This document shows positions 15,590-55,300 of a DNA stretch of 64,000 bases, one piece after another. The stretch's first letter is position 1, and each line of letters begins with the position of its first letter. The translations under genes were made by a program, and so were the position numbers. A model generated the notes under the pieces. It ran no database searches. It was given only the letters and a program-made list of their open reading frames with translations, and was not told the DNA's origin. Origin of the DNA: Bacteroidia bacterium (GTDB taxonomy: Bacteria > Bacteroidota > Bacteroidia > Chitinophagales > JAUHXS01); NCBI GenBank assembly GCA_030426955.1, contig JAUHXS010000012.1, positions 16,629 to 80,628 of the forward strand, given 5' to 3'.

Positions 15590-15600
15590 TTACGATTGAT

Positions 15601-15637: not shown

Positions 15638-15656
15638 GCAACTCTAAAATTAAAAT

Positions 15657-38551: not shown

Positions 38552-40714
38552 TTAATTTAAAGTGATAACCTTTCCTTGAGTTTCATTTTTTGACTTAAAT
38601 TCAACGAAATAGAATCCTTTTGCTAGGTTCTCCAAATTTAGATCAAATTGATATTTTTTGCTTGCTTCATAAGTTTTTTGATATATCTCATTACCATGAA
38701 TGTTAAACAATTTAACAGTAATAGGATTTTTATCACTCATTTCTAAATTGATATAAACCCTATCACTCGTGGGGTTTGGTGCAATATTGATAGCCTTAAA
38801 TACGCTAAAAGGGTTATTCGGAACAGTATCTCCAGGGAGAAACGGATCTTCCTTCTTTCCAGGACCACCATTGATTATCTTAATCAGCTTGGTTACACTA
38901 TCTGTACAAGTGGCATTTGATGCGGTAAGCGTTACATTATAATAAGAGGTATCCACGCCAAGTACATTTTCAAAAGCATGACTAACCTGTTTTTCAGTAC
39001 TAAAAGTAGTATCTCCAAAATCCCAGAAATAGGTCATTGGATTTACAAACGACAGATTAAGAAATACAATTGTATCATTTGAAGTTGCCATACTCGCAGA
39101 TAAAAATTTTGCTGTTACAGACTCCGTTGAAGGGGCAATAGTAAATTGTCCAGTTACTGTTGAATCTAAGTTATCTGTTACAGTTATAGAGTAAGTACCA
39201 GTGGCAACATTTGTCAAATCTTTTGTGGTATCACCATTAGACCATAAATAAGTAAAAGGTGCTTCTCCACCATTTACAGTAATATTGATAGCCCCCAAAG
39301 CATCATCTTTACAACCTGCATTGGTAATTTGGGCTGTGACTTTTAGAACGGTTGTATCACAAGCAGTTACTGTAATAATTATAGAGTCAGTATAAGAGCA
39401 GTTTGATCCATTTGTTGCCTTAACAGATATTGTATCAATCGTTGCAATCGTTGACATATATTGAATTGTCTGAGTTGATTCGGTAGTAGACCATTCATAG
39501 ATTGTGCCACCTGTTGCGTCTCCTGTGTTTTCTCCATCTAATAGTAAACTCTTATTTAAACAAATAGAAGTATCATTACCTAAGTCAACAAAAGGGCTAA
39601 ACTTTTTGTCTAAAATGATGGTGTCTCTGGCCAAACATCCTAAACTATCAAATACGAATACACTAACTGTATCACTACTATTGATTTCTATAGATTGCGT
39701 GGTTTCTCCTGTAGACCATAGATATTTATGTTGTTCTCCAGCATCTAATGTTATACCATCACTTGAACAAAAACTTGTATCATTTCCTAAATTGACTGTC
39801 GGACCATTAGGACAAATGGGGTTAGCTAAAGTTACTCGACCAAAACTTTCTATACCAGACTGTTCGAAAAATTTTTCAGCTATATTCATAGAGTCAAAGC
39901 CAATTGTTGTCCATGTATTGCCCATGTTATCAGAGGCCAAAATAGAAAGACTATCTTCTGAAATACCATTCAATTCAACAGTATCAAAATATTCAACCCT
40001 AACTGTTGCATCTAATCCGACATTAAATGCTGGCGTAATGTCATAATAGCGTAATATGCTTTTTTTGCCTGCAGTTTGCTCGTTATGACCTCTTTTTATA
40101 ACGGTAGTGCCTAAGTTCGCTACAGAAGTAATGTGCAAACCAATGCCTGATATTTCTTCTGATGGACTGCTTAATAATGGACTAGCCAGCAAAAAACCAT
40201 TCCCAAATACTCGTGAAGAATCTGTTTCTCCAACCAATACTCCATTAGATTGCAAATCAATAGTGTGATTATTTAAATCAATATTTGTGCCTGATAGAAA
40301 AAGACTATCCTTTGCACTAATACTCGTTCGAAGCGAAATCGTGCTTGCATTTGAATTAACGTAAACCTTATTAAAGTTAATTTTTCCAGACCCACCCAAT
40401 GTATCTCCATGAAATATTACCGATCCTTCATCACCATCTGAAAAAAGCCCAGTATCTGAGTTATTGATGATATTACCATGAACTTGTATGGTTGCTCCTG
40501 GACATCCTGCAATATTGCCATCATTTACATCTGTTTGATTCACTAAATCACCAAACACATTGATGGTATCTACTGTCATTGTGATAGAAACACCGCCGTT
40601 GTAAAAAGCAGATTGACTGATAGAGTCAAGAGGCAAAAGGCTAAAGCCAAAAGCAACTAATAAAAAAGAATATTTTAATCTTTTAATTTTCAAATTATTT
40701 AACCTTCTAATCAA
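38552..40714 (-). CDS. Secreted PKD/Ig-like repeat protein with T9SS type A C-terminal sorting domain (last gene of the co-directional block)
   Basis: Signal peptide; internal PKD-like units (...YFWDFGDTTFS...); C-terminal ...INIAPNPTSDRVYINLE...KGFYFVEFKSKNETQGKVITLN is Por-secretion-tail-like. Confidence 0.55.
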   Translation of the reverse strand: MIRRLNNLKIKRLKYSFLLVAFGFSLLPLDSISQSAFYNGGVSITMTVDTINVFGDLVNQTDVNDGNIAGCPGATIQVHGNIINNSDTGLFSDGDEGSVIFHGDTLGGSGKINFNKVYVNSNASTISLRTSISAKDSLFLSGTNIDLNNHTIDLQSNGVLVGETDSSRVFGNGFLLASPLLSSPSEEISGIGLHITSVANLGTTVIKRGHNEQTAGKKSILRYYDITPAFNVGLDATVRVEYFDTVELNGISEDSLSILASDNMGNTWTTIGFDSMNIAEKFFEQSGIESFGRVTLANPICPNGPTVNLGNDTSFCSSDGITLDAGEQHKYLWSTGETTQSIEINSSDTVSVFVFDSLGCLARDTIILDKKFSPFVDLGNDTSICLNKSLLLDGENTGDATGGTIYEWSTTESTQTIQYMSTIATIDTISVKATNGSNCSYTDSIIITVTACDTTVLKVTAQITNAGCKDDALGAINITVNGGEAPFTYLWSNGDTTKDLTNVATGTYSITVTDNLDSTVTGQFTIAPSTESVTAKFLSASMATSNDTIVFLNLSFVNPMTYFWDFGDTTFSTEKQVSHAFENVLGVDTSYYNVTLTASNATCTDSVTKLIKIINGGPGKKEDPFLPGDTVPNNPFSVFKAINIAPNPTSDRVYINLEMSDKNPITVKLFNIHGNEIYQKTYEASKKYQFDLNLENLAKGFYFVEFKSKNETQGKVITLN

Positions 40715-41369
40715 TCAAAACATAGTGCCCTTTTCGTCCGACGCTTTCAAACAATAGCATCTGCTTGGTAGTGTTATTTCTCAATCTTAAAGTTCTAAAG
40801 GATTCGTCGTCGTCTGCAATACTATTATCAAAGCTACAACAAAACCCAGTTGAATTTGGCAATAGGTGACCTACATATCCCTCTCTAATTCTACCTCCAT
40901 CAAAAAATGAAATGGTATCTGTTAATGATTTATTGTGGACATTTAAAAAATAACCTGGTCCTCCTTGAACATTTATTGCTAGCCAATTGTTATTGATAAG
41001 TGTGTCGGCACAACCATCTGTTCCAAGACTTACATTTTCATACGGCGACATTCTGACCCATTCTGTTGCCATCGAATCATAAAACATCATATCCTTCACA
41101 GTAGAATCATATACTAATAGTGCATTTGCAGGATTGTTAATAGCTAATCGATTTGCAGAACTCATAACAGGAGGTAATAAGCCCTTATTAGGTGCTTGAA
41201 TATCTAAAATCGCTGAAGGGTCTGGACTTTCGGTATTGATGCCTAGCTGTGCATGTGATTGAAAAATTGAAAAATTAGAAAATTGTAAGATTAAAATGAT
41301 TAAGCTTGTAAAGCAAAATCTACAATCTTTCAATCTTTCAATCTTAAAATCTATAAACCTACTTATCAT
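40707..41369 (-). CDS. Secreted protein, paralog 3 of a tandem triplet with conserved N-terminal GINT...NKGLLPP motif
   Basis: Signal peptide, then AQLGINTESPDPSAILDIQAPNKGLLPPVMSSANRLAINNPANALLVYDST; overlaps both flanking genes. Confidence 0.5.
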   Translation of the reverse strand: MISRFIDFKIERLKDCRFCFTSLIILILQFSNFSIFQSHAQLGINTESPDPSAILDIQAPNKGLLPPVMSSANRLAINNPANALLVYDSTVKDMMFYDSMATEWVRMSPYENVSLGTDGCADTLINNNWLAINVQGGPGYFLNVHNKSLTDTISFFDGGRIREGYVGHLLPNSTGFCCSFDNSIADDDESFRTLRLRNNTTKQMLLFESVGRKGHYVLID

Positions 41370-42093
41370 AAGTCGCTATTCCTGTTAACAAAAACTTAGG
41401 TCCTTCCAAAGTGTCTTTAAATAATATTCCTTTAAAACTATAAACTCTGCCGTCATTACCCATTACTAATAAATTGAATCCCATCTGCGCATCAAAGTGT
41501 AGATTATAATAACCAATCGTTCTAGCATTACCAGGCATTAAAACTCCTCCTGCGTTAAAAGGCGGGCAACTTGGCTCACAAGGCTCAAGAGCTCCAAGTA
41601 TTTCGGTAAAAAAAGTAATCAATGCACCGCTACTCGATGGATTTTCTATTGTAATTGTAGTCAAGGTATCTGAGTAAACTTTCAACCATGGTAAATCAAC
41701 CAAAACGTTTCCACTATCTGTAAGCGACATTTCAAATTTGTCTGTTTTTCGGTTAAGTCTTTCCCATTGACTAAATGTTGTGTTATATGTAAAAAATGTT
41801 TGTAAATCTGTATCAAATACAATCAAGCTATTGGTGGGACTTGCAATTGCATTGCGTTGCAAACTTGTCATTCGAGGTAATAATAAGCCTTGATTAGTAG
41901 ATTGAAGTTGTAGGGCTGCAGAAGTATGTGGTGTGTCTACATTGATACCAACTTGTGCAGTAGCAGTTAGTGAACAGACACTAGTGGTTAGAATCAGTAT
42001 AACAGCAGTTATAAATTCTCTTGCATATAGCTTGGGTGCTACATTCTTAGTAAACAAATTCAAAGAATTATATGTAAAGCTATTTACATACAT
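41359..42093 (-). CDS. Secreted protein, paralog 2 of the tandem triplet
   Basis: AQVGINVDTPHTSAALQLQSTNQGLLLPRMTSLQRNAIASPTNSLIVFDTD; 11-nt and 10-nt overlaps with neighbours. Confidence 0.5.
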   Translation of the reverse strand: MYVNSFTYNSLNLFTKNVAPKLYAREFITAVILILTTSVCSLTATAQVGINVDTPHTSAALQLQSTNQGLLLPRMTSLQRNAIASPTNSLIVFDTDLQTFFTYNTTFSQWERLNRKTDKFEMSLTDSGNVLVDLPWLKVYSDTLTTITIENPSSSGALITFFTEILGALEPCEPSCPPFNAGGVLMPGNARTIGYYNLHFDAQMGFNLLVMGNDGRVYSFKGILFKDTLEGPKFLLTGIATYDK

Positions 42094-42767
42094 GTAAACC
42101 CTTTTTTCTCACTAAAAGTATAGGTTCCTCTAAAAATGGCCGTTGTTGGATCATAAATAGCATCTAACTTAATAAATGGTTTTCCCCCGTCTCCATCTAA
42201 TGTAATAGCAATTTGCAAATGACTGATTTCAGTTACCGAAGAGTAATCCAATATAAATGGTGTGCCTATTGTGTTGGCGGTATCTACATTATCTATTTTT
42301 AGATTATACCTCATTGTTCCCGAGGGTATTATTTCCAAAGTATCTTCATTCTTAATGTGAATATCTACAAAATCGTTTAATGTAATTTGATAAGTAGAAG
42401 GGTCTGTATCGTCTACCTCAAAGTATTTAGTTTGATTAAGCACTTTCCATTTTGAATCAACATTACTATCACCTAAAAGGTTTTGATAAAAATTGTGCCT
42501 TTGATTGGTTGAGTCAAACAGCCAAACCCCTTGTAATGTATTGTCTTCCATTTGAGCCATAGAATCATTTCGAACCCTAGGAACTAATAAGCCTTTATTT
42601 ATCGAACGAATGTCTAATATTGCTGAAGAATCTGGGTTGTTGTTGTTGATACCGATTTGAGAGAATGATTGGAAAATTGTAAGATTAGAATATTGTAAGA
42701 TTAGTGCAATTATTAAAACCTTAAACCAATAACTCATAAATGTTTTTAAAATCTTCAAATTTTTCAA
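42084..42767 (-). CDS. Secreted protein, paralog 1 of the tandem triplet
   Basis: SQIGINNNNPDSSAILDIRSINKGLLVPRVRNDSMAQ...; 3-nt gap to the upstream gene. Confidence 0.5.
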   Translation of the reverse strand: MKNLKILKTFMSYWFKVLIIALILQYSNLTIFQSFSQIGINNNNPDSSAILDIRSINKGLLVPRVRNDSMAQMEDNTLQGVWLFDSTNQRHNFYQNLLGDSNVDSKWKVLNQTKYFEVDDTDPSTYQITLNDFVDIHIKNEDTLEIIPSGTMRYNLKIDNVDTANTIGTPFILDYSSVTEISHLQIAITLDGDGGKPFIKLDAIYDPTTAIFRGTYTFSEKKGFTCM

Positions 42768-42770
42768 TCT

Positions 42771-44795
42771 TTAATTTATAATCAGTTTTACTTTTTCCGA
42801 TTTCGCCACTTCTCCAGTTTTACTAATTGTTCTCACTTGATAATAATACGAATTTTTTGACCGAATGGTGCTGTCTGCATAACTATTTGAGCTAGTTAAT
42901 GTTGAAACTGGAAACATTTTCCCACCTTCTTTCATTCTGTAAACAACATAACCCGTTATCACTTCTTCAGTTCCAATCCAAGATATTTTCGCTATTTTTT
43001 GTGCCGTATCATACGCTACCATTACATTGGAAACAGCATTTGCTAAAATGATATTGGGTATTTGGACTTCATAGATGTTTGAATATGGAGATTTATTACC
43101 AATCAAATCCATAGACTGCACTTTGTATTCATATTCTACACCTTTCTGAATTGATTTGTCATTATATTTTGTAACAATCTTTTCTAGTGTTGCTAGTTTA
43201 GTCCAACTATTAGCACCTTTTATACTTCTAAATACATCAAATTGTTTTAAATCAGCATCAAAAACTGGAAGCCATTCTATTAGGACAGAATTAGAATGAA
43301 CGATTGATTCCTTTATAAATGGTGTAGCTGGAGGCGTGACATCAGGTAAGACATCTCCAGCAGATGATGAAAACTTACTTCTATTGCCCACTTTATCCAT
43401 CGCGATGATTTCATAAGTAAACTTATTTCTAGCATTCTTTGGAAGTATGTCTATATAGTTATTCTCTTTTATAACTTCAGGTGAAATCAATTGTCGGTGT
43501 ATTGCTCCATCTTCAAATGCGTTTCGATAAATCCAGTATCCATCAATATCGGGTTCGGAGTTTGCATTCCATGATAAAACCATTCTTCCTGTATCTGCTT
43601 TAACTTTTAATCCAGTTGGAATGGCTGGAGGTGTTTTGTCCTCAACTGACACACTTATCGTATCTGAAAATGAAGCGTTTCCTGATTTGTCTGAAGCCTT
43701 GAGATAATAATAATAGTTTTTACCTTCTTCTACTGCTTTATCTTTTAAAGTCTTTTGATTATTAAGGTCTGATTGATTCAGTTTATTAAAAATGCTACCT
43801 CTCTTTTCAGATTTATAAACATCCAATGTTCCTGAATATTTTGTAAGGTAATCCCAGTTCAGTTCTACAATTCTATTTGTTACTCTGTGTTCTTTCCAGT
43901 AAGGAGCATCTGGAGCAGTTTCATCTTTCGTGGAAATTTTAAATGGCTTTGAAGGCGTAACTTCTTTATTAAAGAAGTTTAAGCCAACTAGAGAATAGTA
44001 GTAGGTTTTTCCCTCTTGAATTGTATCTGCATAATAATAATCTGGGCTGACATATTTCCCATCTTTATTCATCACTTCATTAACAAGTATTGGCAAGTCA
44101 TTTATTTGCTCACCTTTTGAATCTGGTAATACTGATCTATAAATATTCACTGCATAAAATCGTTTATCTTCAGGCAACCATTTAATTTGAATTTCTTTTT
44201 TCCTTTGTTTAATGTCAATTCCAGAAACTGGTTTTTCAACTAAAGGAGTACCAGCTGTTATTAGTGGAGACACTCCAACTTCAATTTCCTTATCATCTTT
44301 GATATAGGTGATTTTATACTGTACAGACGTTCCTTTTTCAATTTCATCATTGACAATGTATGACCCAGTAAATTTTGCAAATTCATTATTAGTAATCATT
44401 TTCATTATAACGGCTAATTTCGGAATCCCCTGTAACGTTCCGTAAGCCGAGTCGGCAACAATAGTCGCGACTTCAAATTTCATGCTTGTATCACCAATAA
44501 CGCTTGGGAAGTTCGTATATCTAGGATATGGCGTATCGTAAACTTTTTTGAAACTTTTCCCCTTATCAAATGATTCATAAATAAATACTCCATCAGGATA
44601 AGTAAGTTGCTCAGAAAACCACTTTAGTTCGATATGTTCGGTTTCAGTAGAAGTACGGACGTACACCTGCGCTTGAGAGGTATTAGGGACTAGGCAATAG
44701 GAAATAGTAATTAGCCAATAGCCAATAGCCAATAGCCATTGAAATGAACTATCGATATTTAGTTTGAAATCCACTTTTGCCTTTTGGTTCTTCAC
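42771..44795 (-). CDS. Secreted/anchored protein with multiple fibronectin-III-like repeats
   Basis: 674 aa; N-terminal hydrophobic segment; repeated ~95-aa units with W/Y-containing Fn3-like strand patterns (...IQIKWLPEDKRFYAVNIYRS..., ...IEWLPVFDADLKQFDVFRS...). Confidence 0.45.
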   Translation of the reverse strand: MKNQKAKVDFKLNIDSSFQWLLAIGYWLITISYCLVPNTSQAQVYVRTSTETEHIELKWFSEQLTYPDGVFIYESFDKGKSFKKVYDTPYPRYTNFPSVIGDTSMKFEVATIVADSAYGTLQGIPKLAVIMKMITNNEFAKFTGSYIVNDEIEKGTSVQYKITYIKDDKEIEVGVSPLITAGTPLVEKPVSGIDIKQRKKEIQIKWLPEDKRFYAVNIYRSVLPDSKGEQINDLPILVNEVMNKDGKYVSPDYYYADTIQEGKTYYYSLVGLNFFNKEVTPSKPFKISTKDETAPDAPYWKEHRVTNRIVELNWDYLTKYSGTLDVYKSEKRGSIFNKLNQSDLNNQKTLKDKAVEEGKNYYYYLKASDKSGNASFSDTISVSVEDKTPPAIPTGLKVKADTGRMVLSWNANSEPDIDGYWIYRNAFEDGAIHRQLISPEVIKENNYIDILPKNARNKFTYEIIAMDKVGNRSKFSSSAGDVLPDVTPPATPFIKESIVHSNSVLIEWLPVFDADLKQFDVFRSIKGANSWTKLATLEKIVTKYNDKSIQKGVEYEYKVQSMDLIGNKSPYSNIYEVQIPNIILANAVSNVMVAYDTAQKIAKISWIGTEEVITGYVVYRMKEGGKMFPVSTLTSSNSYADSTIRSKNSYYYQVRTISKTGEVAKSEKVKLIIN

Positions 44796-44807
44796 TTTTG
44801 ACTCTAA

Positions 44808-47800
44808 TTAATATAATTTCTGATCTACTTCCAATCCAAAACTCACGCCCTGCCCCACAACAGTAACATATCCATTTAATGTGCCAAACATTTCTGGGGA
44901 AGAGTCAAGTTTCCTTAGTCCTAAGTTACCGGTCAGTCTAGCTGAAGCTAAACTCCATGTACCAGAGGCACCTGTAATTTTAGGATAGTTACAATCTGTA
45001 CCCCAGCTACAGCAACCCGCACATTTCCAAGATCTTCGCGTACAAGTGAACCAACAAACAGGTGGCAACGGAATATCCGGATATTTGTATTTACAACTAA
45101 TTCCGGCTGATGCATCTGCCCAAAAATATAATGTTGGAATATTGAACCCAGGGCTAAATACCGCCTTCCCAGCTCCACCGCCCGCTAAATAAGCATAAGC
45201 ATAAGGTTTGACTTTTACAATGCCGATGTCAATCCATGGAGCATAGAAATAAGCACCCAAATCGATACCTAGACCAAGTTCAAAGTAGTTCTGGGTAACA
45301 TCGAGCCAACCTGTTGGAGAAAAACCAAAACAACCAGGTTTTACCAATATCCGTCTTTCGAAGCTTCCTAAAGTCAATCTAAAACCATAAGGGTCAGAAG
45401 TGAAAACTCCGATAGCATCGACACATAGATTTGGTGTGCCACTTTCCAGTTGAAGCGAAGTGAAAAATCGTCGATCGGGTCTATTGTAGTAAAACTTGCC
45501 TTTCCCTCGTAAGGTACTGATATAGCCAAAGGCAGGCAAATAGTAATTCTTAATTCCCCACTTAATATCCATGGCCACTTCATTAATACCACCTTGTAAA
45601 CCGTTGACCTCAATTGCGCCTTCGATTAGGTGATCAAACCCCATGGTATAGCCATCTACCATTGTCAGACGCAGGTAGGCGCCTCCTTCAACACCTCCAT
45701 CTGGAATATAAGCGGCATTTGTAATGTCTGGTCCTACATTTTCGGTATTTTGATCAATGGAGTATCGTTCATTCATTATCGCGTTTCCGAAATCATGGCG
45801 CATGTGGTGATAAACCCTTATTTCACCTCCTAAAATTCGCATGGGACCAAATGGAATACCTAAACGAGTCAGCTCATTTTTGACCACTTTGCCTTGTAAG
45901 AATTCTTTTACCTTTTTAACAGGTTTGGCCCCCTTCTCTTTATTCATTTTATTGGCATACTTATTCTTTATTTTCTGGGTAGGACCGATATCCCCTGTGG
46001 CAGTTCCGGTTGGTGTTTCAACGTCTAGCCCAGCTTGTGCGAACCAATAAGAATAACCATCTTTTTTACCCAAAATAAATTTCGCATTCGCATAAAAGTC
46101 TACGGGTAGCATCATTCCCAGGAGTCCATACGCTTTAAAACAAGTTCCCCATTCAGGGTCGTTTACGTAAAATTGACCTTCGGCAGCGGCTTGCGCTAGA
46201 ATAACGTCAAAGTTGACACCCATTCTGGAAAAGCCTCTTTCACTAGTGAACTTAGGGTCATTGCCACTTAAACTCACCACACTAATTCGTGTAGGTCCAT
46301 TTTTGATTTCCTTGGCTCCTGAAGGACCAACTTCCAAATAATATCCAGAAAGATTCTCTGCCATATTAATGATCGCATTAAATCCAATTCGATACACATT
46401 ATTTATTCTACTAGCTGTAATTCGATCAATCGTTAAGTCAAATAAGTCCAAAAGCTTTCCATCAATTGGTTCTTCTAAATCGGCTTGTTGGTCTCTTTGA
46501 TCATAAAAACCAACCTCACCATCACTCCAAATATCAAATCCAGGCATGTTTCTCACCTTCAGACCGTATTCGTCAAAGTCTAAATCGATGGTCGTGCGAA
46601 GCTTATCCGTTGATTTAAATTCGCCTTTCTTAATTGTTAACGTTGAATTTCTATAGGTTTTATCTTCGTCATACACAATCATACCACTGCCATCGTCTAA
46701 ATCAATCAATGAAGCAGGCTGAAATCCATAATTTGTTAGAGGTACTTGATAGCGAATAGGTTTATTATTCATTACACGGAGAGGTATATATCCATTGGCA
46801 ACTCCCTCGGAAACAATATTATCTTCAAAAGTGACTGATAAATCGGTAAACCAAGTAAGGAATTCGTGCAAGCGCATTCTTCGATTATTAAGCTCTCTTT
46901 CTTTTAAATTTTTGTAAGTAACATTTCCTTGAAAACCCGAAGCGGTCAGGTACAGGGTGGACTCCATCTTTGTTTTTTCATCCTCTGAGGGAAATTGAGG
47001 ATTAATCGCGTGACCTTGATGAGAAAACACGAAACGACCTTTTGAATCCAATTTTTCTCCAAGATTTAGGGCGTATGTTGTTAGTTTAACCCCTTTTATA
47101 TTATCTTTTAAAGGGCTATCATCAGCAAAGTAAGCTTCGCAAATTTGTGGGGTAATGGAAATATCTGTTTGATCCGCAGGTCTAAAAGTATTACTTAAAC
47201 CAGTGAGTACACTTTGATCAGTTTTGATATAGGTGACTTTGTCTGCATTTCTAAAGCGCAATTCCATTCTTCGACCGTCCGCTGTTTTTATCTTTTCTGG
47301 CAGGAATATGGAACCTCCAAAGTTGAGTTTTACCTTGCTGTCCTTTATGTCATAATAGCAATAGTTGCCATCCAATTTTACCGTATAATCCAGCGGATCA
47401 ACCAATTCATAGGTTTTGTTTATATGGCTGTACCATTCTACCTTACCTGTTATTTTTTTGTTATTAAAGTCAAACCAAACGGTTTTTGAACTGGCAATCG
47501 CACTAGAATCTTTTATTGCGATTGGGAATGACCACCAGACCCGACCATGCAATTCTAGTCCTCGTGCATTATATAGTCTAAAGAAACCTGGAATAAATTC
47601 TGTGTACCCCTGATCTTCATTATCCAACTCTATGTATTTTTCCTTTAGTGTCCCTCGCACAGTACCAGAGTTCATTTGATCATGATTTTCTAAAGCAACA
47701 CTTCTACATTCACCTACATATAACTCATCACCCTCTTTAAATACTTTTACGCTCGCGGTACCTCCATCAAAAACATATTTACCATCCTCAAACTTTATAT

Positions 47801-50174
47801 AAGTTGTTGTTCGATCAAGTTTTGCTTCATGTCCATTACAATAGATACTTTCTAAATCCAGATACGCTTCATCTTCTTGTTTATTTGAAATGGGAACTTT
47901 AAAGGTATACTTGTTCTCCTCTTTTATTGTTTCTCCTTTTATCTGTGTAATAGCGTAGCCTAAAATATAACTATCTTTAATTTCATCTTTCACTATTTCT
48001 AACTTCAACTTGGTAAGCGTACCATGACATTCGGTGTAGTTGACATCATATTTCCCAATACCCTGATAGTTTGTTTCTGCTGAGCAATTTAATCCCTCCC
48101 CATCTATCCAACCTGTTGCATTTGAGTTAAACTCTGGTTGAATCAGTTTATTATAACTCAACTTTCCGCCAAATTCAACATCCTTTTGATGGTTGATCTT
48201 AAATGACTCGAAGTAAACACCTTTCCAATCATTTTGGGTGACAAATTGCCCAGGAGATTTTTTTGAGCTAAAGTCTATAATAGCATTTTTAGGGGCAATG
48301 GTAATAGATTTATAATATCCCACTGAATAAGGAGTGTTAAGAATGTTTTCTGTTATATATTCAAACTGATCTGCTTTTGTAAAGTTTGTTATATAATCTT
48401 TTGTGATTGCTTGACCACTCATTTCAACCGAAACTTCATTATCGCTAATGACATAAGCAGCATTTTCTAAAACTTTTAGCTTGATGTTTTCGGCAATATC
48501 TAAGTCGATGTTTTCTCCTAATAATACTTGCCCATTCAATTTATAGCTATTAAAATCGACCCACTGATCTTTTGTTTGCAATACAAATGAAGTGTCTCCA
48601 TTAGCTTGATCTAATGAAAACTCATTCTTGATATAGCCTTGGAGTTCTAACCCCGATTTATTTAATCTGGCTTGTTTTACACTAAATTTTAAATCAGATG
48701 GGTTTCCATTCTCTATTAAATTGATGGTTTTATTTCTAAACGGATAAAGAATTTCACCACCTTCTAAAACCATTTTTCCAGCAACGTTTTTAATGTTCAA
48801 GGCATTAAAATCTACTAAGTATTCAGCGGTATCTTCAAATATTTTAAGCTTTCCTTGTCCTGTATAGTTTTTTAAATCTGGATTTGTGATGTCTGAAATT
48901 GCTATAATATGATCTCCCGCATAAATACTGGCTGTTCCAGCAGTAAAAGTTCTTACCGCGCTTTTAGCAATAGGTGTTTCGTATACAATGGCACTCACTT
49001 CCCAAGCATATTGCTTACCTTCTTCTAAAGGTTTTTCCAAAGCAAACTCATATCCAAAAGCATGCGGAATTTCTTCAAAGGTTTCCTCATAGAAAGGCGT
49101 ATTGTATGCAATAGCATCTGTACCTGATTGATTAACTTGTTGCTCTACTATTTTTACACTGTAATTAATTGGCTCACCCATTGGAGCATTGTCAGGACCT
49201 TGCCACTTGAATATTGGTGTGCCGATTGCAACAAACGATTTATCTTTAGGCTTGGCCAATGGAATGTTGCCTCCTTTTAAGTCTACTCCGTAGTTAAACC
49301 AGCAAACTTCATTTAATCCATCATTCTCAAATATTGAAACGCCGTTTGCATCACTGGCTTTTATTCTGTAAGCATAGGTTTCGCCTATTTCTAACTGAAT
49401 TTGCTCTGGTCCATAGTAAAAAGATGTACCTAATGAAAGCTCATCATCTAATAAAGGTGTATTGGCACTATTGATAGCATCATTAGGGTTAATTTGTTCT
49501 GGAACTTGCACTAATGTGATTTCATAATTAGTCTGAATAGCTAAGCTAGCATAAGGTTGCCATTGAAATAAAATGTTTTGAGAACTGCGTGCAGGAACAG
49601 TTGAACCACAAGCAGGATAAATTGAAATTGGAGGATTGTTTTTGACAAACAGTGCAGATCCACAGGCTGGAGCTGCTAACGCAAGCCCTGTATTATAATC
49701 TAGAGCCTCTATGCAAATCGTATAAAACCCTTCTGGCAATGAACCTGATTGCAATAAATCTTGCTTGTTGATGCCACTTGCATTTAGGTTATTGTAGTTT
49801 AAGTAAGGGGTTAGAATGTTTCCACCTATTTCATTTGAACCTGGAAATAAGTTGATTGGATTGGGACGATAGTTTTCAGGCGTTTCAAGAAAAACTTGGT
49901 TGTTACTAATGGTGATTTTTAATCGAACATCGGTAGAAGGTTCATTAAAATCGTTAAAAACTAGGTTTACTTTAAACCTTTCAAATCCAGATACAACGTT
50001 ATTGCTTAAATATACCGAATAGGGTGGTGTGATCGAAAAGTTGGTGGTGACAGGGTAAATGGTCTGTGCCAGACAGTTTAAAGTTATTAGTTTGAAGTTT
50101 AAAGTTATTAGTATCAGTAACAACCTTAAATTTCTAACTTCAAACCTCAAACCAATATGTTTTTTAATTTTCAA
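44808..50174 (-). CDS. Giant secreted protein (1788 aa) with Cys-rich C-terminal tail; no recognisable named domains
   Basis: Signal peptide; 5.4-kb uninterrupted ORF; C-terminal ...PPVCWFTCTRRSWKCAGCCSWGTDCNYP... carries 9 Cys in about 30 aa. Confidence 0.5.
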   Translation of the reverse strand: MKIKKHIGLRFEVRNLRLLLILITLNFKLITLNCLAQTIYPVTTNFSITPPYSVYLSNNVVSGFERFKVNLVFNDFNEPSTDVRLKITISNNQVFLETPENYRPNPINLFPGSNEIGGNILTPYLNYNNLNASGINKQDLLQSGSLPEGFYTICIEALDYNTGLALAAPACGSALFVKNNPPISIYPACGSTVPARSSQNILFQWQPYASLAIQTNYEITLVQVPEQINPNDAINSANTPLLDDELSLGTSFYYGPEQIQLEIGETYAYRIKASDANGVSIFENDGLNEVCWFNYGVDLKGGNIPLAKPKDKSFVAIGTPIFKWQGPDNAPMGEPINYSVKIVEQQVNQSGTDAIAYNTPFYEETFEEIPHAFGYEFALEKPLEEGKQYAWEVSAIVYETPIAKSAVRTFTAGTASIYAGDHIIAISDITNPDLKNYTGQGKLKIFEDTAEYLVDFNALNIKNVAGKMVLEGGEILYPFRNKTINLIENGNPSDLKFSVKQARLNKSGLELQGYIKNEFSLDQANGDTSFVLQTKDQWVDFNSYKLNGQVLLGENIDLDIAENIKLKVLENAAYVISDNEVSVEMSGQAITKDYITNFTKADQFEYITENILNTPYSVGYYKSITIAPKNAIIDFSSKKSPGQFVTQNDWKGVYFESFKINHQKDVEFGGKLSYNKLIQPEFNSNATGWIDGEGLNCSAETNYQGIGKYDVNYTECHGTLTKLKLEIVKDEIKDSYILGYAITQIKGETIKEENKYTFKVPISNKQEDEAYLDLESIYCNGHEAKLDRTTTYIKFEDGKYVFDGGTASVKVFKEGDELYVGECRSVALENHDQMNSGTVRGTLKEKYIELDNEDQGYTEFIPGFFRLYNARGLELHGRVWWSFPIAIKDSSAIASSKTVWFDFNNKKITGKVEWYSHINKTYELVDPLDYTVKLDGNYCYYDIKDSKVKLNFGGSIFLPEKIKTADGRRMELRFRNADKVTYIKTDQSVLTGLSNTFRPADQTDISITPQICEAYFADDSPLKDNIKGVKLTTYALNLGEKLDSKGRFVFSHQGHAINPQFPSEDEKTKMESTLYLTASGFQGNVTYKNLKERELNNRRMRLHEFLTWFTDLSVTFEDNIVSEGVANGYIPLRVMNNKPIRYQVPLTNYGFQPASLIDLDDGSGMIVYDEDKTYRNSTLTIKKGEFKSTDKLRTTIDLDFDEYGLKVRNMPGFDIWSDGEVGFYDQRDQQADLEEPIDGKLLDLFDLTIDRITASRINNVYRIGFNAIINMAENLSGYYLEVGPSGAKEIKNGPTRISVVSLSGNDPKFTSERGFSRMGVNFDVILAQAAAEGQFYVNDPEWGTCFKAYGLLGMMLPVDFYANAKFILGKKDGYSYWFAQAGLDVETPTGTATGDIGPTQKIKNKYANKMNKEKGAKPVKKVKEFLQGKVVKNELTRLGIPFGPMRILGGEIRVYHHMRHDFGNAIMNERYSIDQNTENVGPDITNAAYIPDGGVEGGAYLRLTMVDGYTMGFDHLIEGAIEVNGLQGGINEVAMDIKWGIKNYYLPAFGYISTLRGKGKFYYNRPDRRFFTSLQLESGTPNLCVDAIGVFTSDPYGFRLTLGSFERRILVKPGCFGFSPTGWLDVTQNYFELGLGIDLGAYFYAPWIDIGIVKVKPYAYAYLAGGGAGKAVFSPGFNIPTLYFWADASAGISCKYKYPDIPLPPVCWFTCTRRSWKCAGCCSWGTDCNYPKITGASGTWSLASARLTGNLGLRKLDSSPEMFGTLNGYVTVVGQGVSFGLEVDQKLY

Positions 50175-50183
50175 ACCTTCTAA

Positions 50184-51845
50184 TCAAAAAGAATAACGAT
50201 AGTTAACTGTGCCTCTCACTTCACTAAAATTTTGTGTATCACTTTTTCTATTTACATAAGTAGTATTGAAGCTAATATTATGTTTTTTGTAAAACTTATA
50301 GCCAACAGATAGTCTTGCAGTGTAGGTATACCCATCAGCATTTCCGCTTGTAGTTCTTAATAAATAAGAGTTAAACAAACCTACTTTAATTTTCTTTTCA
50401 AACAAGTCCTTTCCAATTCCTACTGTTGGACCAATGTTGGTTAAATCCAAGACATCTGATTGCATCTTATTATAGTTTCCTGCCAAAGTCCACGTCAAAC
50501 CGATTGGGTGTATATTGTATCGGTAACTCAGAATGGTGTTTTGAAAAGTTGTGATTTGTTCGCTAATTCGATACTCATCTCTCGCATTGGCAACTTGGAA
50601 ACCTGTATTTAGAGAAAGGCTTTGTTTATGTTCTTTCGAACCAAAGGAGTAGTTTGCATTAAAGTTAGCATTTGTAGATACTTGGTAAAAATTCAATGAA
50701 TCTGTTACATCATCTCTAATTGCTTGTATGGAGGAAGAAAAGTTAGAAAATGCTAATCCTAAGTTAAGTTGTTGAGTCACTAAGTAATTAATGTTTGCCG
50801 AGCCTATTAGTCGAGTCGTTTTACTAGCCTCAGTGTTTTTTAAGTTATTGTGCTGAAAACCAATAGCACCGTTTATATTCATTTTCTTTTTTAACATCTG
50901 CCACCCTGCGCTCAATGTGATATCCTCCAAATCATTGTTGAAGAAATAAGCCCCCATTGTTTTATAATCTCCTTCTACTCTTTTATACATCAATTTCAAT
51001 TGATATCCTTCTCCTTGATATCCTAATCCTGACTGAATAGCATTATTATAGGAGGTAGTTGTTCTAGCAGTATACAAACCGCTCGTGGCTGAATAAATAC
51101 CATTCGGGTTTTCCGTTATCTCAGAATTGATATCATCTGAATAAGCACTCTTTGCAAATTCTAACTCAAAGCTCAATTTTTTAGTCAGCATTTTCTTTCC
51201 ATTGAAGCCCAAAACTAGATTTTCCGCTGGAGTAATACCTAAACTTGAGTCCTCATTTACTATAGAATTCACGTCGTCTTTCGCTTTAAATAGGATAAGA
51301 TCGATGAAGTTGTTATCATCTCCATATCCAAGTTTTAGTCCATAGCCTAGCCTTTTATAAGAGGCCGACTCTCCTAAAAGGTTGTTTGCTTCAACAGCTC
51401 TTCTGAATCTACCGTAAACAAAAGCAAATCGATATTTCTCAGGTGTTAGTTCAACTCCCGCACCTAAAAAGGTATGCCCTGCAAGGGTATGTGGGGAAAA
51501 AGTAACATTTCGATATCCAGCATGAACCTTAATCCATTTATAATATGGACTTGCTCCAAACTGATTAAAAGGTTGGCGAAAATCTGTGTTTTGATTAGTG
51601 AAGTAAGCGCTAAAAGGCACTTGAATGCCATAAAAGCTCATATTTAGATTGGCATTAGCAGACCAGTTATAAGGATCACGTCGATCTTCTATTCCAGAAG
51701 CGGTATATCCAGATAGAGAACCACCAATTGATCCATTGATTTTAAAGGGCTCGGCTTTAGCGACACTTTCTAAGTCTTGTGCCTTTAGATGTCCCGTCGA
51801 AACGACTATTAAAATGAGTAATACTAACCTTGATTGGTGCACCAA
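50184..51845 (-). CDS. Outer-membrane beta-barrel protein (553 aa)
   Basis: Signal peptide; amphipathic beta-strand periodicity throughout; C-terminal ...GTVNYRYSF with terminal Phe, typical of an OMP signature. Confidence 0.5.
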   Translation of the reverse strand: MVHQSRLVLLILIVVSTGHLKAQDLESVAKAEPFKINGSIGGSLSGYTASGIEDRRDPYNWSANANLNMSFYGIQVPFSAYFTNQNTDFRQPFNQFGASPYYKWIKVHAGYRNVTFSPHTLAGHTFLGAGVELTPEKYRFAFVYGRFRRAVEANNLLGESASYKRLGYGLKLGYGDDNNFIDLILFKAKDDVNSIVNEDSSLGITPAENLVLGFNGKKMLTKKLSFELEFAKSAYSDDINSEITENPNGIYSATSGLYTARTTTSYNNAIQSGLGYQGEGYQLKLMYKRVEGDYKTMGAYFFNNDLEDITLSAGWQMLKKKMNINGAIGFQHNNLKNTEASKTTRLIGSANINYLVTQQLNLGLAFSNFSSSIQAIRDDVTDSLNFYQVSTNANFNANYSFGSKEHKQSLSLNTGFQVANARDEYRISEQITTFQNTILSYRYNIHPIGLTWTLAGNYNKMQSDVLDLTNIGPTVGIGKDLFEKKIKVGLFNSYLLRTTSGNADGYTYTARLSVGYKFYKKHNISFNTTYVNRKSDTQNFSEVRGTVNYRYSF

Positions 51846-51970: not shown

Positions 51971-52384
51971 TTACAGCTTAAACTGCAATTCCACCTTACT
52001 GCCATTATCAGAGAAAGAGATCAGGTCAGAAAGCTGAGTCATTAAGAAGACACCACGACCGTTAGGTTTGTCTAGATTTTCTTCTTTAGTTGGATCAGGT
52101 AAATTGTTGTAATCAAAACCTGGGCCTTCATCTTCCACAAAAAAAGTTAAAGCTTTGTCTTCCTTTTGGTGGCTAATTTTAACTTGTTTGCTTTCATCAG
52201 CCTGATTGCCGTGCATAATAGCATTATTAACCGCTTCTGTCATTACAACCAGCATATTGCTATATATCTCGTCAGAAATATCATACTCATCTTTGAGCTC
52301 ATCAATCAATGGTTCTATCCTAGTTATATTTTTAGGATTAGATTTTAAAACGAGTTCAGCATCTTTTAGCAAACTGCCCATCAC
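51971..52384 (-). CDS. HATPase_c-type anti-sigma regulatory factor-like Ser kinase (RsbW/SpoIIAB-like)
   Basis: 137 aa; ...EAVNNAIMHGN... N-box and ...DEGPGF... G1-box of the GHKL ATPase fold. Confidence 0.55.
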   Translation of the reverse strand: MMGSLLKDAELVLKSNPKNITRIEPLIDELKDEYDISDEIYSNMLVVMTEAVNNAIMHGNQADESKQVKISHQKEDKALTFFVEDEGPGFDYNNLPDPTKEENLDKPNGRGVFLMTQLSDLISFSDNGSKVELQFKL

Positions 52385-52396
52385 ACTAATTTAACA

Positions 52397-55300
52397 TTAA
52401 AAAGTAATTTCCTTAAAATAGTCTTCTACTAAATTTTTGTAAAAAGGTTTCAAATTTGGTGGTAAAGTTTTATATAAATCTATTTCAGCTTGTCTTTTTT
52501 TGAGGTATTCCTCAATTTCAGGAGGTGTTTTCTTTTCAATTTCTTGAGCTGTATTCGATTTTCTTTCCTGATCCAGTTCTCTTTCTCGTTCTGCATCTTC
52601 AGCTTCCAATAATCTTGTCATAATATCTTCTTGACGACGCATAATTTCTTTAGATAATCTTTTGTTTACCAAATCCTCTTCTGTTTTTTCCATCTCATCG
52701 ATGAGTTTGCCTAAATCGCCGTAAGCGTCTTTACCCTCTTTTCCACTTTTGCTGTTCAGCTCTTCTAGTGCTTGTCGTATTTGAGCTTGTTGCTGTGCCA
52801 TTTTAGCGAACTCTCTGCTCATGCCTGATTTGCCCCCAGGTTTGCCCTCCTTCATCATTTTTTGTAAATCTCCGATTTGTTGGTTGAGTTGTTTCTGCAA
52901 ATCGCCCATCTTCGACATCTTGCCACTTTTCCCGCTTTTGCTTCCGCCAGGGTTCTGACAATTTTGGCTTCCCTGCATATTGCTTGCCATTTGTTCTTGC
53001 ATAGATTGCATGACCTCGCTCATCATTAATGCAAGATTATTTAATGAGGTCATTGCGTATTGTTGCCTTATGCTCGCATTTCTAGTATTTCTCGCCTCTA
53101 AGTAATCGATGCTTTCCTCAACTTCCTTAGAAAGCTTATTGACCTCTTTGGTTACAAAAGATTCAATCTGAAAAACTTTCTTTGCAAGTGAAAGTAGACT
53201 GTCTTTAACCATATTAGATTCATCTTTAAGTTTATATTGATCTTGAATAAGTGTAACGTACTCAGGACTTTTTTGGCTGGTGGTATTTAGTCTTGCTATC
53301 AAGTCTTCCTGATCGAATGAAAGCTGGATTAAGTTTTCTAAAATCTGTCTCACTGCCTCAAGGTTTAGAGCAGTCTCTTGAGATTGCATCTGCTGTTGCA
53401 TGCCTTCTAATTGCTGTGCTAAATCCCCCATTTTTTCGGAAGATTGTTTTTGTTGTTCAGATGCTTTCTTAGACTTGTTATCTTGTAAGCTTTCCTTTGA
53501 TTCTTGCATACTTTTTTTGATGTCTTCTACTTTGGGTTTTGTATCATCAATAGACTGATCTGTTTTATTGCCTGTTTTCTCCTCCAACGATTCTTGCTTT
53601 TTGTTTAGATCGTCAAGTTTTTTTTCTAAATCATCGAATTGTTGAGTAATCTCTTCTTGCTTTTCTTGTAATTGTTCAGGAGACTCTTGCTTATCTTCGG
53701 TTTCTTTACTCAACTCTTCTTGCTTTTGAGAAAGTTCTTTGAGATCATCAATGGTCTCCTGCAAGTCTTGCTCAAACTCCAACTTTTCAAATAATGCCAA
53801 CATCTGGTCTAAATTCTGCTCCATCTCCTCATTGTTCGTTTCAAATTCTTCTAGTTTTTCAATAGCATTTTCATTATTTAACTTTTCTAAAAGATCAGAG
53901 AGCTTATCCATCAGCTCTTTGACTTCATCAGACATAGTTTCCTCTAATAACTTCTGTAGCTTATCGTATTTCTGTAAAACCTTTTCGTCAAACTGTTTAA
54001 ACTTTTGTTGCTGTGATAAATTCTCCTTAAAGTTTTCCTGAATGGATTCTACCATATTTTGCAGATCCTTTTGTTTTTCTATGACACTTTTTATCTGATT
54101 CTTATCTTGCCAATCTAGATTCTTTTTCTGAAGAAGATTTTCTTGAATTTGTTTTATTTCCTCCCTCATTTTCTTCGCTTCATCAATTGTTTCACTTAAA
54201 TCATCTTTTAGCTCATCATCTTTTTGGTCTGCTAGTCTTTGCATTTCATTTTTGTCGGGAAGTGATAAAGTCAGTAACCCTGAGCGAGTGTACTTGCTAC
54301 CATTAATAGCATCATTATCCCACACTTCAAAGTAATATGAAACTTCATCTCCAGGCTGAATATTAAGGTCTTTAAAGTTTTTATAATGTGTAAATATTTG
54401 ATAAGTGCTTCCTTTTTGAATGTCAATTTTTTCAGATATAAAGCTTGTCTCTGTTTGATCTTGTTTATCAATTTTATATTTAAAAAACAGATTCTTCAGA
54501 CCATAATCGTCAGAGATATCTCCTAAAAAGTATAAGTAAGTTAAGTCAGTCGAATCAACCTTAGGATCAACTTTTATAGATGGATATAAATCAGGTATTG
54601 TATTAATTGTATACTGAATGGAGTCGCCTACAGGCACCTCTGTTCCTTCTGTATAGATGGTGTAAAGTTGGTTAGAAAGAATTTTTCTGTTGATCTCAAA
54701 TCTTTCTTCTTGTTTGTTGTTGGCAATGAGACGTTTGTTGTCGTCAAACTTGAGACTTATGCTACGGACACTCTTTCCTTCAAAATTCCAAGACACCTTT
54801 GTACCAACGGGGATGTAGAGGTCACCAGTATTCTTTAATACGTCATTCTTTTTATTGATATAACTAGGATAGTTTAGCTGTACTTCAAAGCTAGAAATCA
54901 GAGGCTTTTTTAACATGTTGATTTGATATCGTTTGGAATAGTGCCCCAATGCTTCAACTTGAAAACTCAAGTCACTTTGAACATTCTTGAGTTTGTGACT
55001 AAATGAACTGAGATCTGATTTTGACATTTTCACTTTCTTTCCATCAATGATTAGAGAAGCATTATTCGGAATGGCTGTTCCTTCGAGTTTTATCAGAATA
55101 TCAAGATCATCAAATTGCACCACATCAAGTGATGAGTTTAGCAATTTAAATTGAAATGGAGCTGCTTTTTCAAACGCTGTATTATTTTGAATAATTCTAT
55201 TAGTACCATCCTTGATAATGTCAGGAGAAATGAAGAGAATTAATAAAATAGTCAAAAGAGGCGGAATGGCATATTTGAGATACTTTTTATTATCACCAAG

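Follow-up and report, generated by a model that had tools for sequence, protein, structure and literature searches.

A giant envelope protein with a divergent TANFOR domain and its putative outer-membrane barrel partner in a Bacteroidota gene cluster

A single open reading frame of 1788 amino acids plus a stop codon (hereafter the giant) raises the question of what kind of protein it encodes, how that protein leaves the cell and what it has to do with the gene for an outer-membrane barrel beside it. The frame occupies positions 44808..50174 of the window, by which is meant the whole 64-kb stretch of Bacteroidia DNA that was analysed. It lies on the minus strand, as do all features whose positions are given here. 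The source genome has a low GC content of 35%, and metagenome-assembled Flavobacteriales genomes are its closest relatives. An earlier note on this DNA had described a single 5.4-kb frame with a signal peptide; the 1788 codons are indeed uninterrupted, and the strand is to be corrected to minus. Translation would begin at a TTG, with an alternative start at codon 9 (nt 50150), and it is at codon 9 that the version deposited at NCBI begins (1780 aa, otherwise an identical protein). From the sequence, residues 1-36 (50067..50174) are predicted to form a signal peptide that SPase I would cleave after LNCLA and before Q; the structural model has a helix at residues 5-34, and the family consensus at the cleavage point reads ...AQ..PV. 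Colinearity with the giant, from the signal peptide through the last strand, holds for more than 30 independent homologues 1600-1750 aa long, and isolate genomes, for example that of Portibacter lacus, likewise encode such a protein in a single gene. Because these colinear homologues exist, the idea that sequencing frameshifts fused several genes into one, named in the earlier note as a refuter and favoured by the unusual length and nothing else, is rejected as having a negligible probability, against which the identical NCBI protein and the single gene of the isolate genomes also speak.

A divergent TANFOR domain at the N-terminus

The giant has no match in Pfam or NCBIfam at E<=0.01, and Pfam finds no RHS/YD or Fil_haemagg repeats on it. 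Searched by sequence against the PDB, the giant and the barrel, like the profiles of TANFOR and of the C-terminal domain, returned noise or generic Fn3 only. With the Pfam threshold relaxed to E<=10, the barrel, the two termini of the giant and the small cluster proteins still had no meaningful match. The earlier note had seen no type IX secretion (T9SS) C-terminal sorting domain (CTD) on the giant, and the scans agree: neither the type A (TIGR04183 / PF18962) nor the type B (CHU_C / TIGR04131) domain is present, and the same scans found a T9SS CTD on four other proteins of the window.

Family membership emerges from residues ~37-304 (49263..50066), directly after the Sec signal peptide. A profile match relates this region to TANFOR (TIGR02542), the module found at the N-terminus of polymorphic toxins in Bacteroidota (Jana, Salomon & Bosis 2020, PMC7073777). 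Against an HMM built from 57 barrel-adjacent N-domains, the N-domain of the giant scores E=3.5e-100, and 43 of those 57 sister domains match TIGR02542 at E<=0.01 (best E=1.3e-31). The giant itself aligns with TIGR02542 colinearly across model positions 8-138 of 145, with 14.6 bits and E=0.023, a score that is far under the curated cut-off of 67 bits and counts against the best reading. Pairwise identities are 21-51%, and the N-domain of the giant is 30-43% identical to the N-termini of toxin-bearing proteins. In 35 relatives this domain is all that is shared with the giant, and four of the five such proteins that were scanned end in PT-HINT, Scabin/pertussis-S1 ART, M15 peptidase or DUF5675. 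Through the intermediate sister sequences, the N-domain of the giant is shown to be homologous to bona fide TANFOR. Profile comparison establishes the N-terminus, in a protein that the earlier note had left without a family, as a divergent TANFOR domain, Fn3-like, with conserved cysteines 154, 171, 189 and 291 and two likely disulfides. All named relatives come from Bacteroidota, except one from a metagenome-assembled genome labelled Halioglobus. The best explanation of the giant is a Sec-exported, nearly all-beta protein of the cell envelope that belongs to the Bacteroidota TANFOR superfamily.

Between this domain and the C-terminus lie further beta-rich units. An extra Fn3-like unit at residues ~324-399 (48978..49205) is followed by module M1 (residues ~400-773; 47856..48977), which is conserved across the giant family and modelled with a pLDDT of 80-90. 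Module M2 (residues ~774-1138; 46761..47855) is a clade-specific, diverged duplicate of M1, modelled at pLDDT <50 and covered by only 4 homologues. The internal duplication of this ~370-aa module was found by self-BLAST, in which residues ~505-685 and ~869-1063 align with 23% identity (E=6e-7). At the profile level, then, the absence of recognisable repeats claimed in the earlier note gives way to Fn3-like units and a duplicated module.

The barrel gene and its cluster

Nine nucleotides upstream of the giant sits the gene for a 553-aa outer-membrane beta-barrel protein (50184..51845) of an orphan family. The protein has a signal peptide, and Y-x-Y-x-F is conserved at its C-terminus. Its homologues number more than 1571 (38-48% identity, 545-600 aa), and relatives occur in at least 528 species genomes of the Cytophagales, Chitinophagales, Sphingobacteriales, Saprospirales, Bacteroidales and Flavobacteriales. 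Members of the family show sporadic matches to OMP_b-brl_3, DUF5777 and OMP_b-brl, and the barrel has no match in the PDB. The absence of a POTRA region from the barrel was correctly noticed from the sequence: even at E<=1, Pfam finds no POTRA, ShlB or Bac_surface_Ag on it and none on 26 members of its family, and it does detect POTRA on the BamA gene of the same window.

The pairing of the two genes, which the earlier note had likened to transporter-plus-passenger pairs, has strong support from synteny. Among barrel loci with room for a downstream gene, 56 of 76 have a TANFOR-bearing gene directly after the barrel, with a median gap of 3 nt; the distance falls within -120 to +30 nt in 48 of the 56, and an identical overlap of -17 nt recurs in 10 loci. 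About a quarter of barrel loci have no adjacent TANFOR gene by BLAST, which counts against the best reading. Elsewhere the barrel adjoins or shares a cluster with two toxin-bearing TANFOR genes and shares its contig with a third. On the best reading, the barrel would be a dedicated outer-membrane partner of a toxin-less TANFOR scaffold, with a putative role in export or anchoring; synteny alone does not distinguish a pore, an anchor or an assembly factor.

The arrangement invites comparison with two-partner secretion and contact-dependent inhibition (TpsB-TpsA, CdiB-CdiA). In both cases a conserved barrel precedes a divergent giant exoprotein, and the cargo, including polymorphic toxins, has a common N-terminal domain and variable C-termini. 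The parts, however, are different. The barrel has no POTRA/Omp85 architecture, the giant has a TANFOR/Fn3-like N-domain in place of a TPS (haemagg_act) domain, the phylum is another one, and the function suggested here comes from synteny. Of the likeness to two-partner secretion proposed in the earlier note, the adjacency of the genes (9 nt) stands, whereas neither a POTRA/Omp85 barrel nor a TPS domain is found.

Both genes belong to a tightly packed cluster of seven (38552..51845) that comprises, in order, the barrel, the giant, a multi-Fn3 protein, three small paralogues and an SprB/PKD-containing T9SS cargo protein. The intergenic distances are, in the same order, 9, 12, 3, -10, -11 and -8 nt, and each of the seven products has a predicted signal peptide whose cleavage is predicted at A/S-Q. 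The order of the genes recurs in other Bacteroidota. A scan for sigma-70 promoters and terminators, which is ill-suited to Bacteroidota promoters, gave a number of sites not above that in shuffled sequence. The multi-Fn3 protein (674 aa; 42771..44795; Pfam fn3 match) is the conserved third gene of the module, and homologues of 640-730 aa come after the giant in 26 of 51 loci with at least 9 kb of downstream sequence. The three small secreted proteins (227, 244 and 220 aa; 40707..42767) have a ~70-aa N-terminal module in common; in alignments, their relatives at other loci carry phage tail Collar + Gp10_C heads, and precomputed annotation assigns Pfam PTL_trimer to such relatives. Tail-fibre-like proteins are thus among the neighbours of this subclass of barrel-linked TANFOR genes. 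The last gene encodes a 720-aa protein with an SprB repeat, a PKD domain and a type A T9SS CTD (38552..40714; Pfam and NCBIfam matches), and SprB-like T9SS cargo is frequent near the barrel/TANFOR loci of other genomes. Published TANFOR neighbourhoods are marked by SprB, Fn3, PKD and Por_Secre_tail (PMC7073777). The neighbourhood of the giant, with its Fn3 protein and its SprB/PKD/CTD protein, fits that signature, as do the homologous loci.

The C-terminal beta domain and what the giant may do

The C-terminal ~480 residues of the giant (~1310-1788; 44811..46247) make up a conserved beta domain of long amphipathic strands, in which hydrophobic residues alternate as is typical of sheets that face lipid. 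The domain is conserved across 146 clusters, always in a barrel-adjacent gene. Within it, a Lys-rich variable linker (residues ~1389-1434; 45873..46010), helical and of low pLDDT in the model, is a hot spot for insertions, and homologues carry 250-1000 extra residues there. The structural neighbours of the domain are outer-membrane barrels, among them ScrY, CymA, FimD/PapC, TonB-dependent receptors and LptD, at a poor fit (TM ~0.2); the best Foldseek matches are LptD and ApoB100. Like autotransporters, LptD and chaperone-usher ushers, the giant has an N-terminal beta-rich region followed by a domain that is structurally near outer-membrane barrels. It differs from them in having no sequence match to autotransporters or any outer-membrane protein family, in the low TM value, in a non-canonical C-terminus, in being accompanied by a separate barrel, and in that some homologues extend for hundreds of residues more. 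Two of these features count against the best reading: family members mostly end in L, F or M, not in the canonical aromatic beta-signal, and a second subclass carries 250-900 further residues beyond the domain. With an hhalign probability of 0.4% between them, the C-domain and the partner barrel family are not detectably related.

Taken as a whole, the locus is read, with moderate confidence, as encoding a toxin-less TANFOR scaffold of the envelope partnered with a dedicated outer-membrane barrel. The barrel would recognise the TANFOR N-domain and act either as a pore for export or as an anchor. The giant may be a non-toxic scaffold copy held in or on the outer membrane through its C-terminal beta domain, with its Fn3-like region projecting from the membrane, and the shared N-domain could let TANFOR toxins take the same route. 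A wider proposal is put forward tentatively and is thought possible rather than probable: that the barrel, the toxin-less giant and the multi-Fn3 protein form the core of an undescribed, Bacteroidota-specific pathway for export or display at the outer membrane, in which the TANFOR N-domain acts as a targeting signal and which also deploys TANFOR toxins. Such a pathway would work much as two-partner secretion does, with unrelated parts.

If true, the pathway would answer a question left open in 2020, when TANFOR proteins were proposed as a new class of Bacteroidetes polymorphic toxins and their export by the T9SS was only hypothesised (PMC7073777). No follow-up on the route of TANFOR proteins across the outer membrane was found in the searchable literature; a table of vesicle (EV/OMV) proteins includes a 3078-aa TANFOR protein of T. 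forsythia (PMC10682907). The barrel family, which has no Pfam or NCBIfam family, is a concrete candidate for the missing component of TANFOR export or anchoring, and the domain-based enrichment analysis of PMC7073777 could not have picked it up. A conserved 'scaffold' subclass with no detectable toxin domain is also set apart from the toxin-bearing TANFOR proteins. Since several hosts are cultured (Portibacter lacus, Chitinophaga, Pedobacter, Spirosoma and Fulvivirga), the idea is directly testable.

Among the alternatives, the least unlikely makes the giant a TANFOR polymorphic toxin in its own right, whose amphipathic C-domain is a pore-forming or membrane-inserting payload for target cells. 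TANFOR proteins are described as polymorphic toxins, many of them with C-termini listed as 'Unknown' (PMC7073777), and the amphipathic beta meander of the C-domain looks like membrane barrels and the beta-belt of ApoB. The giant and these toxins are also alike in their signal peptide, N-terminal TANFOR domain, Fn3-like units, restriction to Bacteroidota and gene neighbourhood, and the homology of the N-domains is direct at the sequence level. The likeness ends there. Pfam and NCBIfam detect no toxin domain on the giant, and the extensions at the C-terminus of 8 further giants next to a barrel gene likewise have no match. In place of a toxin domain and an immunity gene, the giant has the ~480-aa beta domain and is coupled to a barrel gene that goes unmentioned in PMC7073777; its TIGR02542 score, too, sets it apart. 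With its conservation across 146 clusters, always beside the barrel, the C-domain is not polymorphic. The next gene encodes the conserved Fn3 protein of 640-730 aa rather than an immunity-sized product. In other genomes the same cluster also holds TANFOR proteins with toxin domains, at other places than that of the giant, together with small immunity-like genes. The 64-kb window has no toxin-bearing TANFOR gene, a point against the best reading that leaves toxin delivery by this organism a putative role. A toxic giant is considered improbable. As for the clear match to a known toxin family that had been named as a refuter, the giant does belong to the TANFOR superfamily, and it has no detectable toxin domain.

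It is quite improbable that the giant is an ordinary T9SS-secreted adhesin or gliding protein of the SprB/SprC/SprD type with a PorP/SprF-like anchor barrel. In favour of this reading, genes with SprB repeats and CTDs lie in the cluster, and at some homologous loci PorP_SprF and CHU_C genes stand directly 5' of the barrel gene. In SprB-SprF, as here, a large Bacteroidota surface protein goes with a dedicated outer-membrane barrel. The giant, however, lacks a CTD of either type, its partner domain is N-terminal instead of C-terminal, and none of its homologues bears an Spr name. The barrel, moreover, is not detectably related to PorP/SprF: hhalign of its family against PorP/SprF-like neighbours from two loci (L004, L005) gave a probability of 0.45%.

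Turning to a different function, the giant could be a periplasm-spanning beta-groove protein like AsmA, TamB or LptD that moves lipid or other hydrophobic cargo to the barrel. The ranking of LptD and ApoB100 in Foldseek suggests as much, as do the long amphipathic strands and an adjacent barrel partner as in TamA-TamB. The giant differs from the AsmA/TamB-like proteins in having no AsmA, TamB or DUF490 match in Pfam and in its cleavable A-Q signal-peptide site, and this alternative is rated very unlikely.

A cysteine-rich insertion

The feature that first drew attention to the giant was a tail said to hold 9 cysteines in about 30 residues at the extreme C-terminus, for which a metal site, a disulfide-knot anchor or a sorting/processing signal had been suggested. 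The actual cluster is 7 cysteines within residues 1694-1728 (35 residues), 6 of them within 22 aa, and it is internal, with 60 residues after the last cysteine that form three conserved beta strands. Most of it falls in a lineage-specific, Cys-rich insertion of ~38 aa at residues 1699-1736 (44967..45080; PDIPLPPVCWFTCTRRSWKCAGCCSWGTDCNYPKITGA), which none of the 31 aligned homologues has and which nearly all of ~60 further sequences inspected lack. Searching a 5.8-billion-protein index with the Cys-rich peptide brought up no protein, not even the giant, so that this empty result carries no weight. All 146 matches in the representative library stop just before it, at residue ~1698, and the segment is modelled as a low-confidence loop (pLDDT <50). 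As an insertion lacking in the aligned homologues, it does not provide a sorting or anchoring signal for the family. That the segment nonetheless defines the class, as metal site, knot or signal, is highly unlikely; the clustering is non-random (6 cysteines in 22 aa were reached in 3 of 20000 shuffles), and at the same hairpin a distant homologue (L040) bears a Cys-rich loop of smaller size (ICFPCCVKKNPNGCD), yet the absence from the homologues, the end point of the library matches, the low pLDDT and the conserved strands downstream all weigh against it. The cluster is of minor interest, confined to its lineage, where it may form a knob, probably disulfide-bonded, that caps a long beta hairpin.

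Reading frame and family of the giant protein

As the earlier note proposed, the 1788-aa exported giant is encoded by one uninterrupted ORF with a signal peptide (1788 codons, 44808-50174), but on the minus strand, the plus-strand reading of this interval containing stop codons throughout. The first start codon is TTG, and the identical NCBI deposit begins at codon 9 for a length of 1780 aa. Predicted Sec export signals are present in that the N-terminus, MKIKKHIGLRFEVRNLRLLLILITLNFKLITLNCLA followed by QT, is a standard signal peptide and forms a helix at residues 5-34 of the structure model. The absence of a C-terminal sorting domain (CTD) of type IX secretion system (T9SS) cargo was also confirmed.

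Searched as a whole against Pfam, NCBIfam and PDB sequences, the giant gives no match. Its relatives in a large protein database fall into two classes. In one, about 35 proteins, 1.6-1.75 kaa long apart from a few of up to 2.9 kaa, are colinear with it over the whole length at 20-31% identity, which refutes the suggestion that the ORF is an artefact fusing several genes. Another 35 or so share only residues ~33-296, at 28-43% identity. When five of these were scanned with Pfam, fn3 came next in four and a recognisable terminal domain was found in four, namely PT-HINT, a Scabin/pertussis-S1 ADP-ribosyltransferase, an M15 peptidase and DUF5675. Their domain content follows the plan of a polymorphic toxin family whose members have one N-terminal trafficking domain in common.

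[quoted passage not shown] TIGR02542 matches two of the N-domain-only relatives weakly and the N-terminus of the giant in colinear fashion (E=0.023), with a score falling well short of the curated cut-off. The assignment of the giant follows instead from intermediate sequences, 57 N-domains of genes that adjoin the partner barrel in species genomes. TIGR02542 matches 43 of the 57 at E<=0.01 (best E 1.3e-31), and an HMM built from all of them matches the giant at E=3.5e-100. By this transitive homology the N-domain is assigned to TANFOR and the giant to the TANFOR superfamily, its direct score staying under the curated threshold. A match to a known toxin family, considered in the earlier note, therefore extends to the superfamily only: no toxin domain was detected on the giant, which lies outside the TANFOR polymorphic toxins as functionally defined. 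These statements of identity, taken together, are held with high confidence.

The C-terminal beta domain and the cysteine loop

Structure prediction in segments, as suggested earlier, was carried out as two AlphaFold models from a family alignment of 33-36 sequences anchored by the full-length sequence. The models show a predicted all-beta fold with a conserved amphipathic C-domain. Model quality is poor for residues ~774-1138. This region, covered by only four close homologues, duplicates the module before it in diverged form (23% identity over 202 aa, E=6e-7). Conservation across the family extends over the last ~480 residues (1310-1788), which are well modelled (pLDDT of 85-93 over the final 300 aa) as ~21 consecutive strands of 5-20 residues with short turns between them. 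Because the strands strictly alternate hydrophobic with small or polar positions and are rich in aromatics at their ends, we call this domain a putative lipid-facing amphipathic beta meander resembling a barrel. In one strand, YFELGLGIDLGAYFY, the two faces read F-L-L-I-L-A-F and Y-E-G-G-D-G-Y-Y. Three points call for caution over reading it as a simple C-terminal outer-membrane barrel: members of the family mostly end in L, F or M, a second subclass extends 250-900 residues beyond the domain, and there is no detectable relation to the partner barrel. A Lys-rich linker inside the domain (aa 1389-1434, 45873-46010, minus strand) is an insertion hot spot, with 250-1000 extra residues at this site in homologues from seven loci (L021, L030, L064, L067, L020, L015 and L049).

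The cysteine cluster that drew attention to the giant proves to be an ordinary feature. Where nine cysteines had been counted at the extreme C-terminus, there are seven of the total of 21 in aa 1694-1728 (six within 22 residues), and 60 residues follow the last. The clustering is genuine and non-random, an equal density arising in only 3 of 20000 sequence shuffles. Alignment of the last 260 residues with 31 homologues places PDIPLPPVCWFTCTRRSWKCAGCCSWGTDCNYPKITGA (aa 1699-1736) as an insertion between two conserved strands, at a point where all 31 have a turn of about 8-12 residues instead. In an exhaustive phmmer search of 1.84 billion representative proteins with the C-terminal 650 aa, the matches to 146 relatives end at ~aa 1698, just short of the insertion. 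Among ~60 further sequences, a Cys-rich loop at this hairpin recurs only in the distant homologue at locus L040, where it is smaller (ICFPCCVKKNPNGCD). The cluster is a lineage-specific loop insertion and not a family feature, so a general role in sorting or anchoring, along the lines suggested earlier, is excluded; nor, lacking conservation, does it recommend itself as the functional key of the giant. The pLDDT of the insertion is below 50, against ~90 for the flanking strands, and it is most simply read as a knob, held together by disulfides, that caps a long beta hairpin. The L040 loop (in a C-domain homologue at 14439-15824, 19% identity) appears to have arisen independently at the same hairpin tip, and the homologous protein P0027 has four cysteines near the equivalent position.

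The partner barrel and the surrounding genes

Directly upstream of the giant lies a 553-aa outer-membrane beta-barrel gene (50184-51845, minus strand) whose product carries, besides a signal peptide, an almost invariant Y-x-Y-x-F at the C-terminus. Pfam finds no POTRA or Omp85 signature on it, as the earlier note had surmised, and readily returns four POTRA hits on the 876-aa BamA-like protein of the same window (26925-29555, minus strand), an internal positive control. The barrel family is large and well conserved (more than 1571 matches at 38-48% identity, 545-600 aa), with OMP models matching few members (OMP_b-brl_3 at 1.5e-8, DUF5777, OMP_b-brl). At least 528 GTDB species genomes contain relatives, spread over the Cytophagales, Chitinophagales, Sphingobacteriales, Saprospirales, Bacteroidales and Flavobacteriales.

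The co-occurrence of giant and barrel raised in the earlier note is borne out widely. ORFs were called in 80 retrieved barrel loci, and in 56 of the 76 with room downstream a gene with the giant's N-domain lies directly 3' of the barrel; with a jackhmmer profile, the domain is found in 57 of 68 downstream ORFs. The gap has a median of 3 nt (48 of 56 within -120 to +30 nt), and complete partner genes have a median size of 1693 aa. In ten loci from different genera (L011-L086), the gap from the barrel stop to the earliest possible TANFOR start is an identical -17 nt, an overlap which, the start calls being mechanical, hints at conserved translational coupling. Where at least 9 kb was available downstream (51 loci), a TANFOR gene is present in 39 and a homologue of the cluster's Fn3 protein as well in 26. 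For the giant's gene, then, close linkage to the genes of a dedicated barrel and an Fn3 protein is widespread. T9SS cargo genes occur alongside the giant's gene as well, joined in other genomes by TANFOR toxin genes. The C-terminal extensions of eight barrel-adjacent giants of the second subclass contain no Pfam domain, so the barrel-adjacent copy looks like a conserved component free of a toxin domain. The three toxin-bearing TANFOR genes whose contigs allowed comparison each share theirs with a barrel gene. The order in Catalinimonas is barrel, 1470-aa giant, Fn3, SprB-CTD, TANFOR toxin P0043 and small ORFs; at L088 it is SprB, barrel, a 136-aa gene and TANFOR P0037; TANFOR P0040 follows Fn3, SprB and CTD genes on a contig that also has barrel P0180.

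At two loci of one subclade (L004:6841-8289 and L005:6652-8310), an unusually long PorP_SprF-family gene (482-552 aa) lies directly upstream of the barrel and after CHU_C/PKD cargo genes; its product has a long charged C-terminal extension, probably a coiled-coil. One locus, L036, pairs a barrel with a 3045-aa TANFOR gene in a MAG that bears the name of a gammaproteobacterium, Halioglobus sp. Misbinning is the probable cause; if real, the placement would indicate horizontal transfer outside Bacteroidota.

The giant is gene 2 of seven in a tightly packed minus-strand cluster (38552-51845) with intergenic gaps of -11 to +12 nt. Each of the seven products carries a signal peptide that ends in A/S-Q, as is reportedly typical of signal peptidase I substrates in Bacteroidota (the 'Q-rule' of Bochtler et al. 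2018). Three tandem paralogous small secreted proteins of 227, 244 and 220 aa (40707-42767, minus strand) have in common a ~70-aa module after the signal peptide (AQ-[VIL]-GIN-x2-P-x2-SA-x-LD...KGLL-x-PR...), followed by C-termini unrelated to one another. Relatives in other loci carry this module fused to heads of the phage tail Collar and Gp10_C types and have a precomputed Pfam PTL_trimer match, which suggests that the paralogues may be exchangeable tail-fibre-like tips borne by a shared adaptor. Immediately beyond the upstream end of the cluster, 125 nt from the barrel gene, lie a 137-aa anti-sigma-factor kinase-like HATPase_c_2 protein and a 1119-aa DUF4175 protein (51971-55756, minus strand), preceded by an SBP_bac_5 solute-binding protein (55869-57659). 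The window also encodes a class II (B12-dependent) ribonucleotide reductase of 1103 aa with a C-terminal TSCPD domain (18021-21332, minus strand). Three further T9SS cargo proteins are predicted, with PKD and type B CHU_C (5125-7377, plus strand), PKD x4, Laminin_G_3 and type A CTD (8197-11475, minus strand), and a beta-helix and type A CTD (16070-17752, minus strand); on these predictions both CTD types are in use in the source genome.

Proposed mechanism and alternatives

SprB, Fn3, PKD and Por_Secre_tail domains are enriched in TANFOR gene neighbourhoods (PMC7073777), and the giant's cluster fits this signature, with a 674-aa multi-Fn3 protein and a 720-aa SprB/PKD/type A CTD protein downstream. 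The barrel is unmentioned in that paper, whose enrichment analysis is domain-based; the barrel has no domain model. We tentatively propose that the barrel is the outer-membrane partner that would receive the TANFOR N-domain, as export pore or anchor. The giant would then be the scaffold copy, its C-domain retaining it at the outer membrane and the Fn3, tail-fibre-like and SprB-like proteins decorating it, and TANFOR toxins, having the N-domain in common, could use the same route. As a whole, this mechanism is possible but somewhat doubtful.

The giant could instead be ordinary T9SS cargo or a Spr protein, but it has no CTD, and the barrel is not detectably related to the PorP/SprF-like neighbours at L004 and L005. 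As a lipid bridge of the TamB/LptD type, the giant would be expected to carry the corresponding sequence signature, which was not found; its signal peptide is cleavable and its N-terminal region Fn3-like. A self-contained pore-forming toxin is argued against by the conserved C-domain and by the lack of an immunity gene. The resemblance to two-partner secretion noted earlier stands for gene order and shared N-domain logic, but the defining POTRA-Omp85 and TPS domain are both missing.

While the TANFOR family is already known, its toxin-domain-free barrel-linked subclass, the C-terminal beta domain and the barrel partner are undescribed in the searchable literature. T9SS export of TANFOR proteins was hypothesised, not shown, in PMC7073777, and a whole-word literature search for TANFOR found nine papers with no study of their export route among them. 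The value of the conserved barrel-TANFOR-Fn3 module is that it makes this route directly testable. A 3078-aa T. forsythia TANFOR protein appears in the EV/OMV protein table of a proteomics study (PMC10682907), which gives weak experimental support to an envelope or vesicle location.
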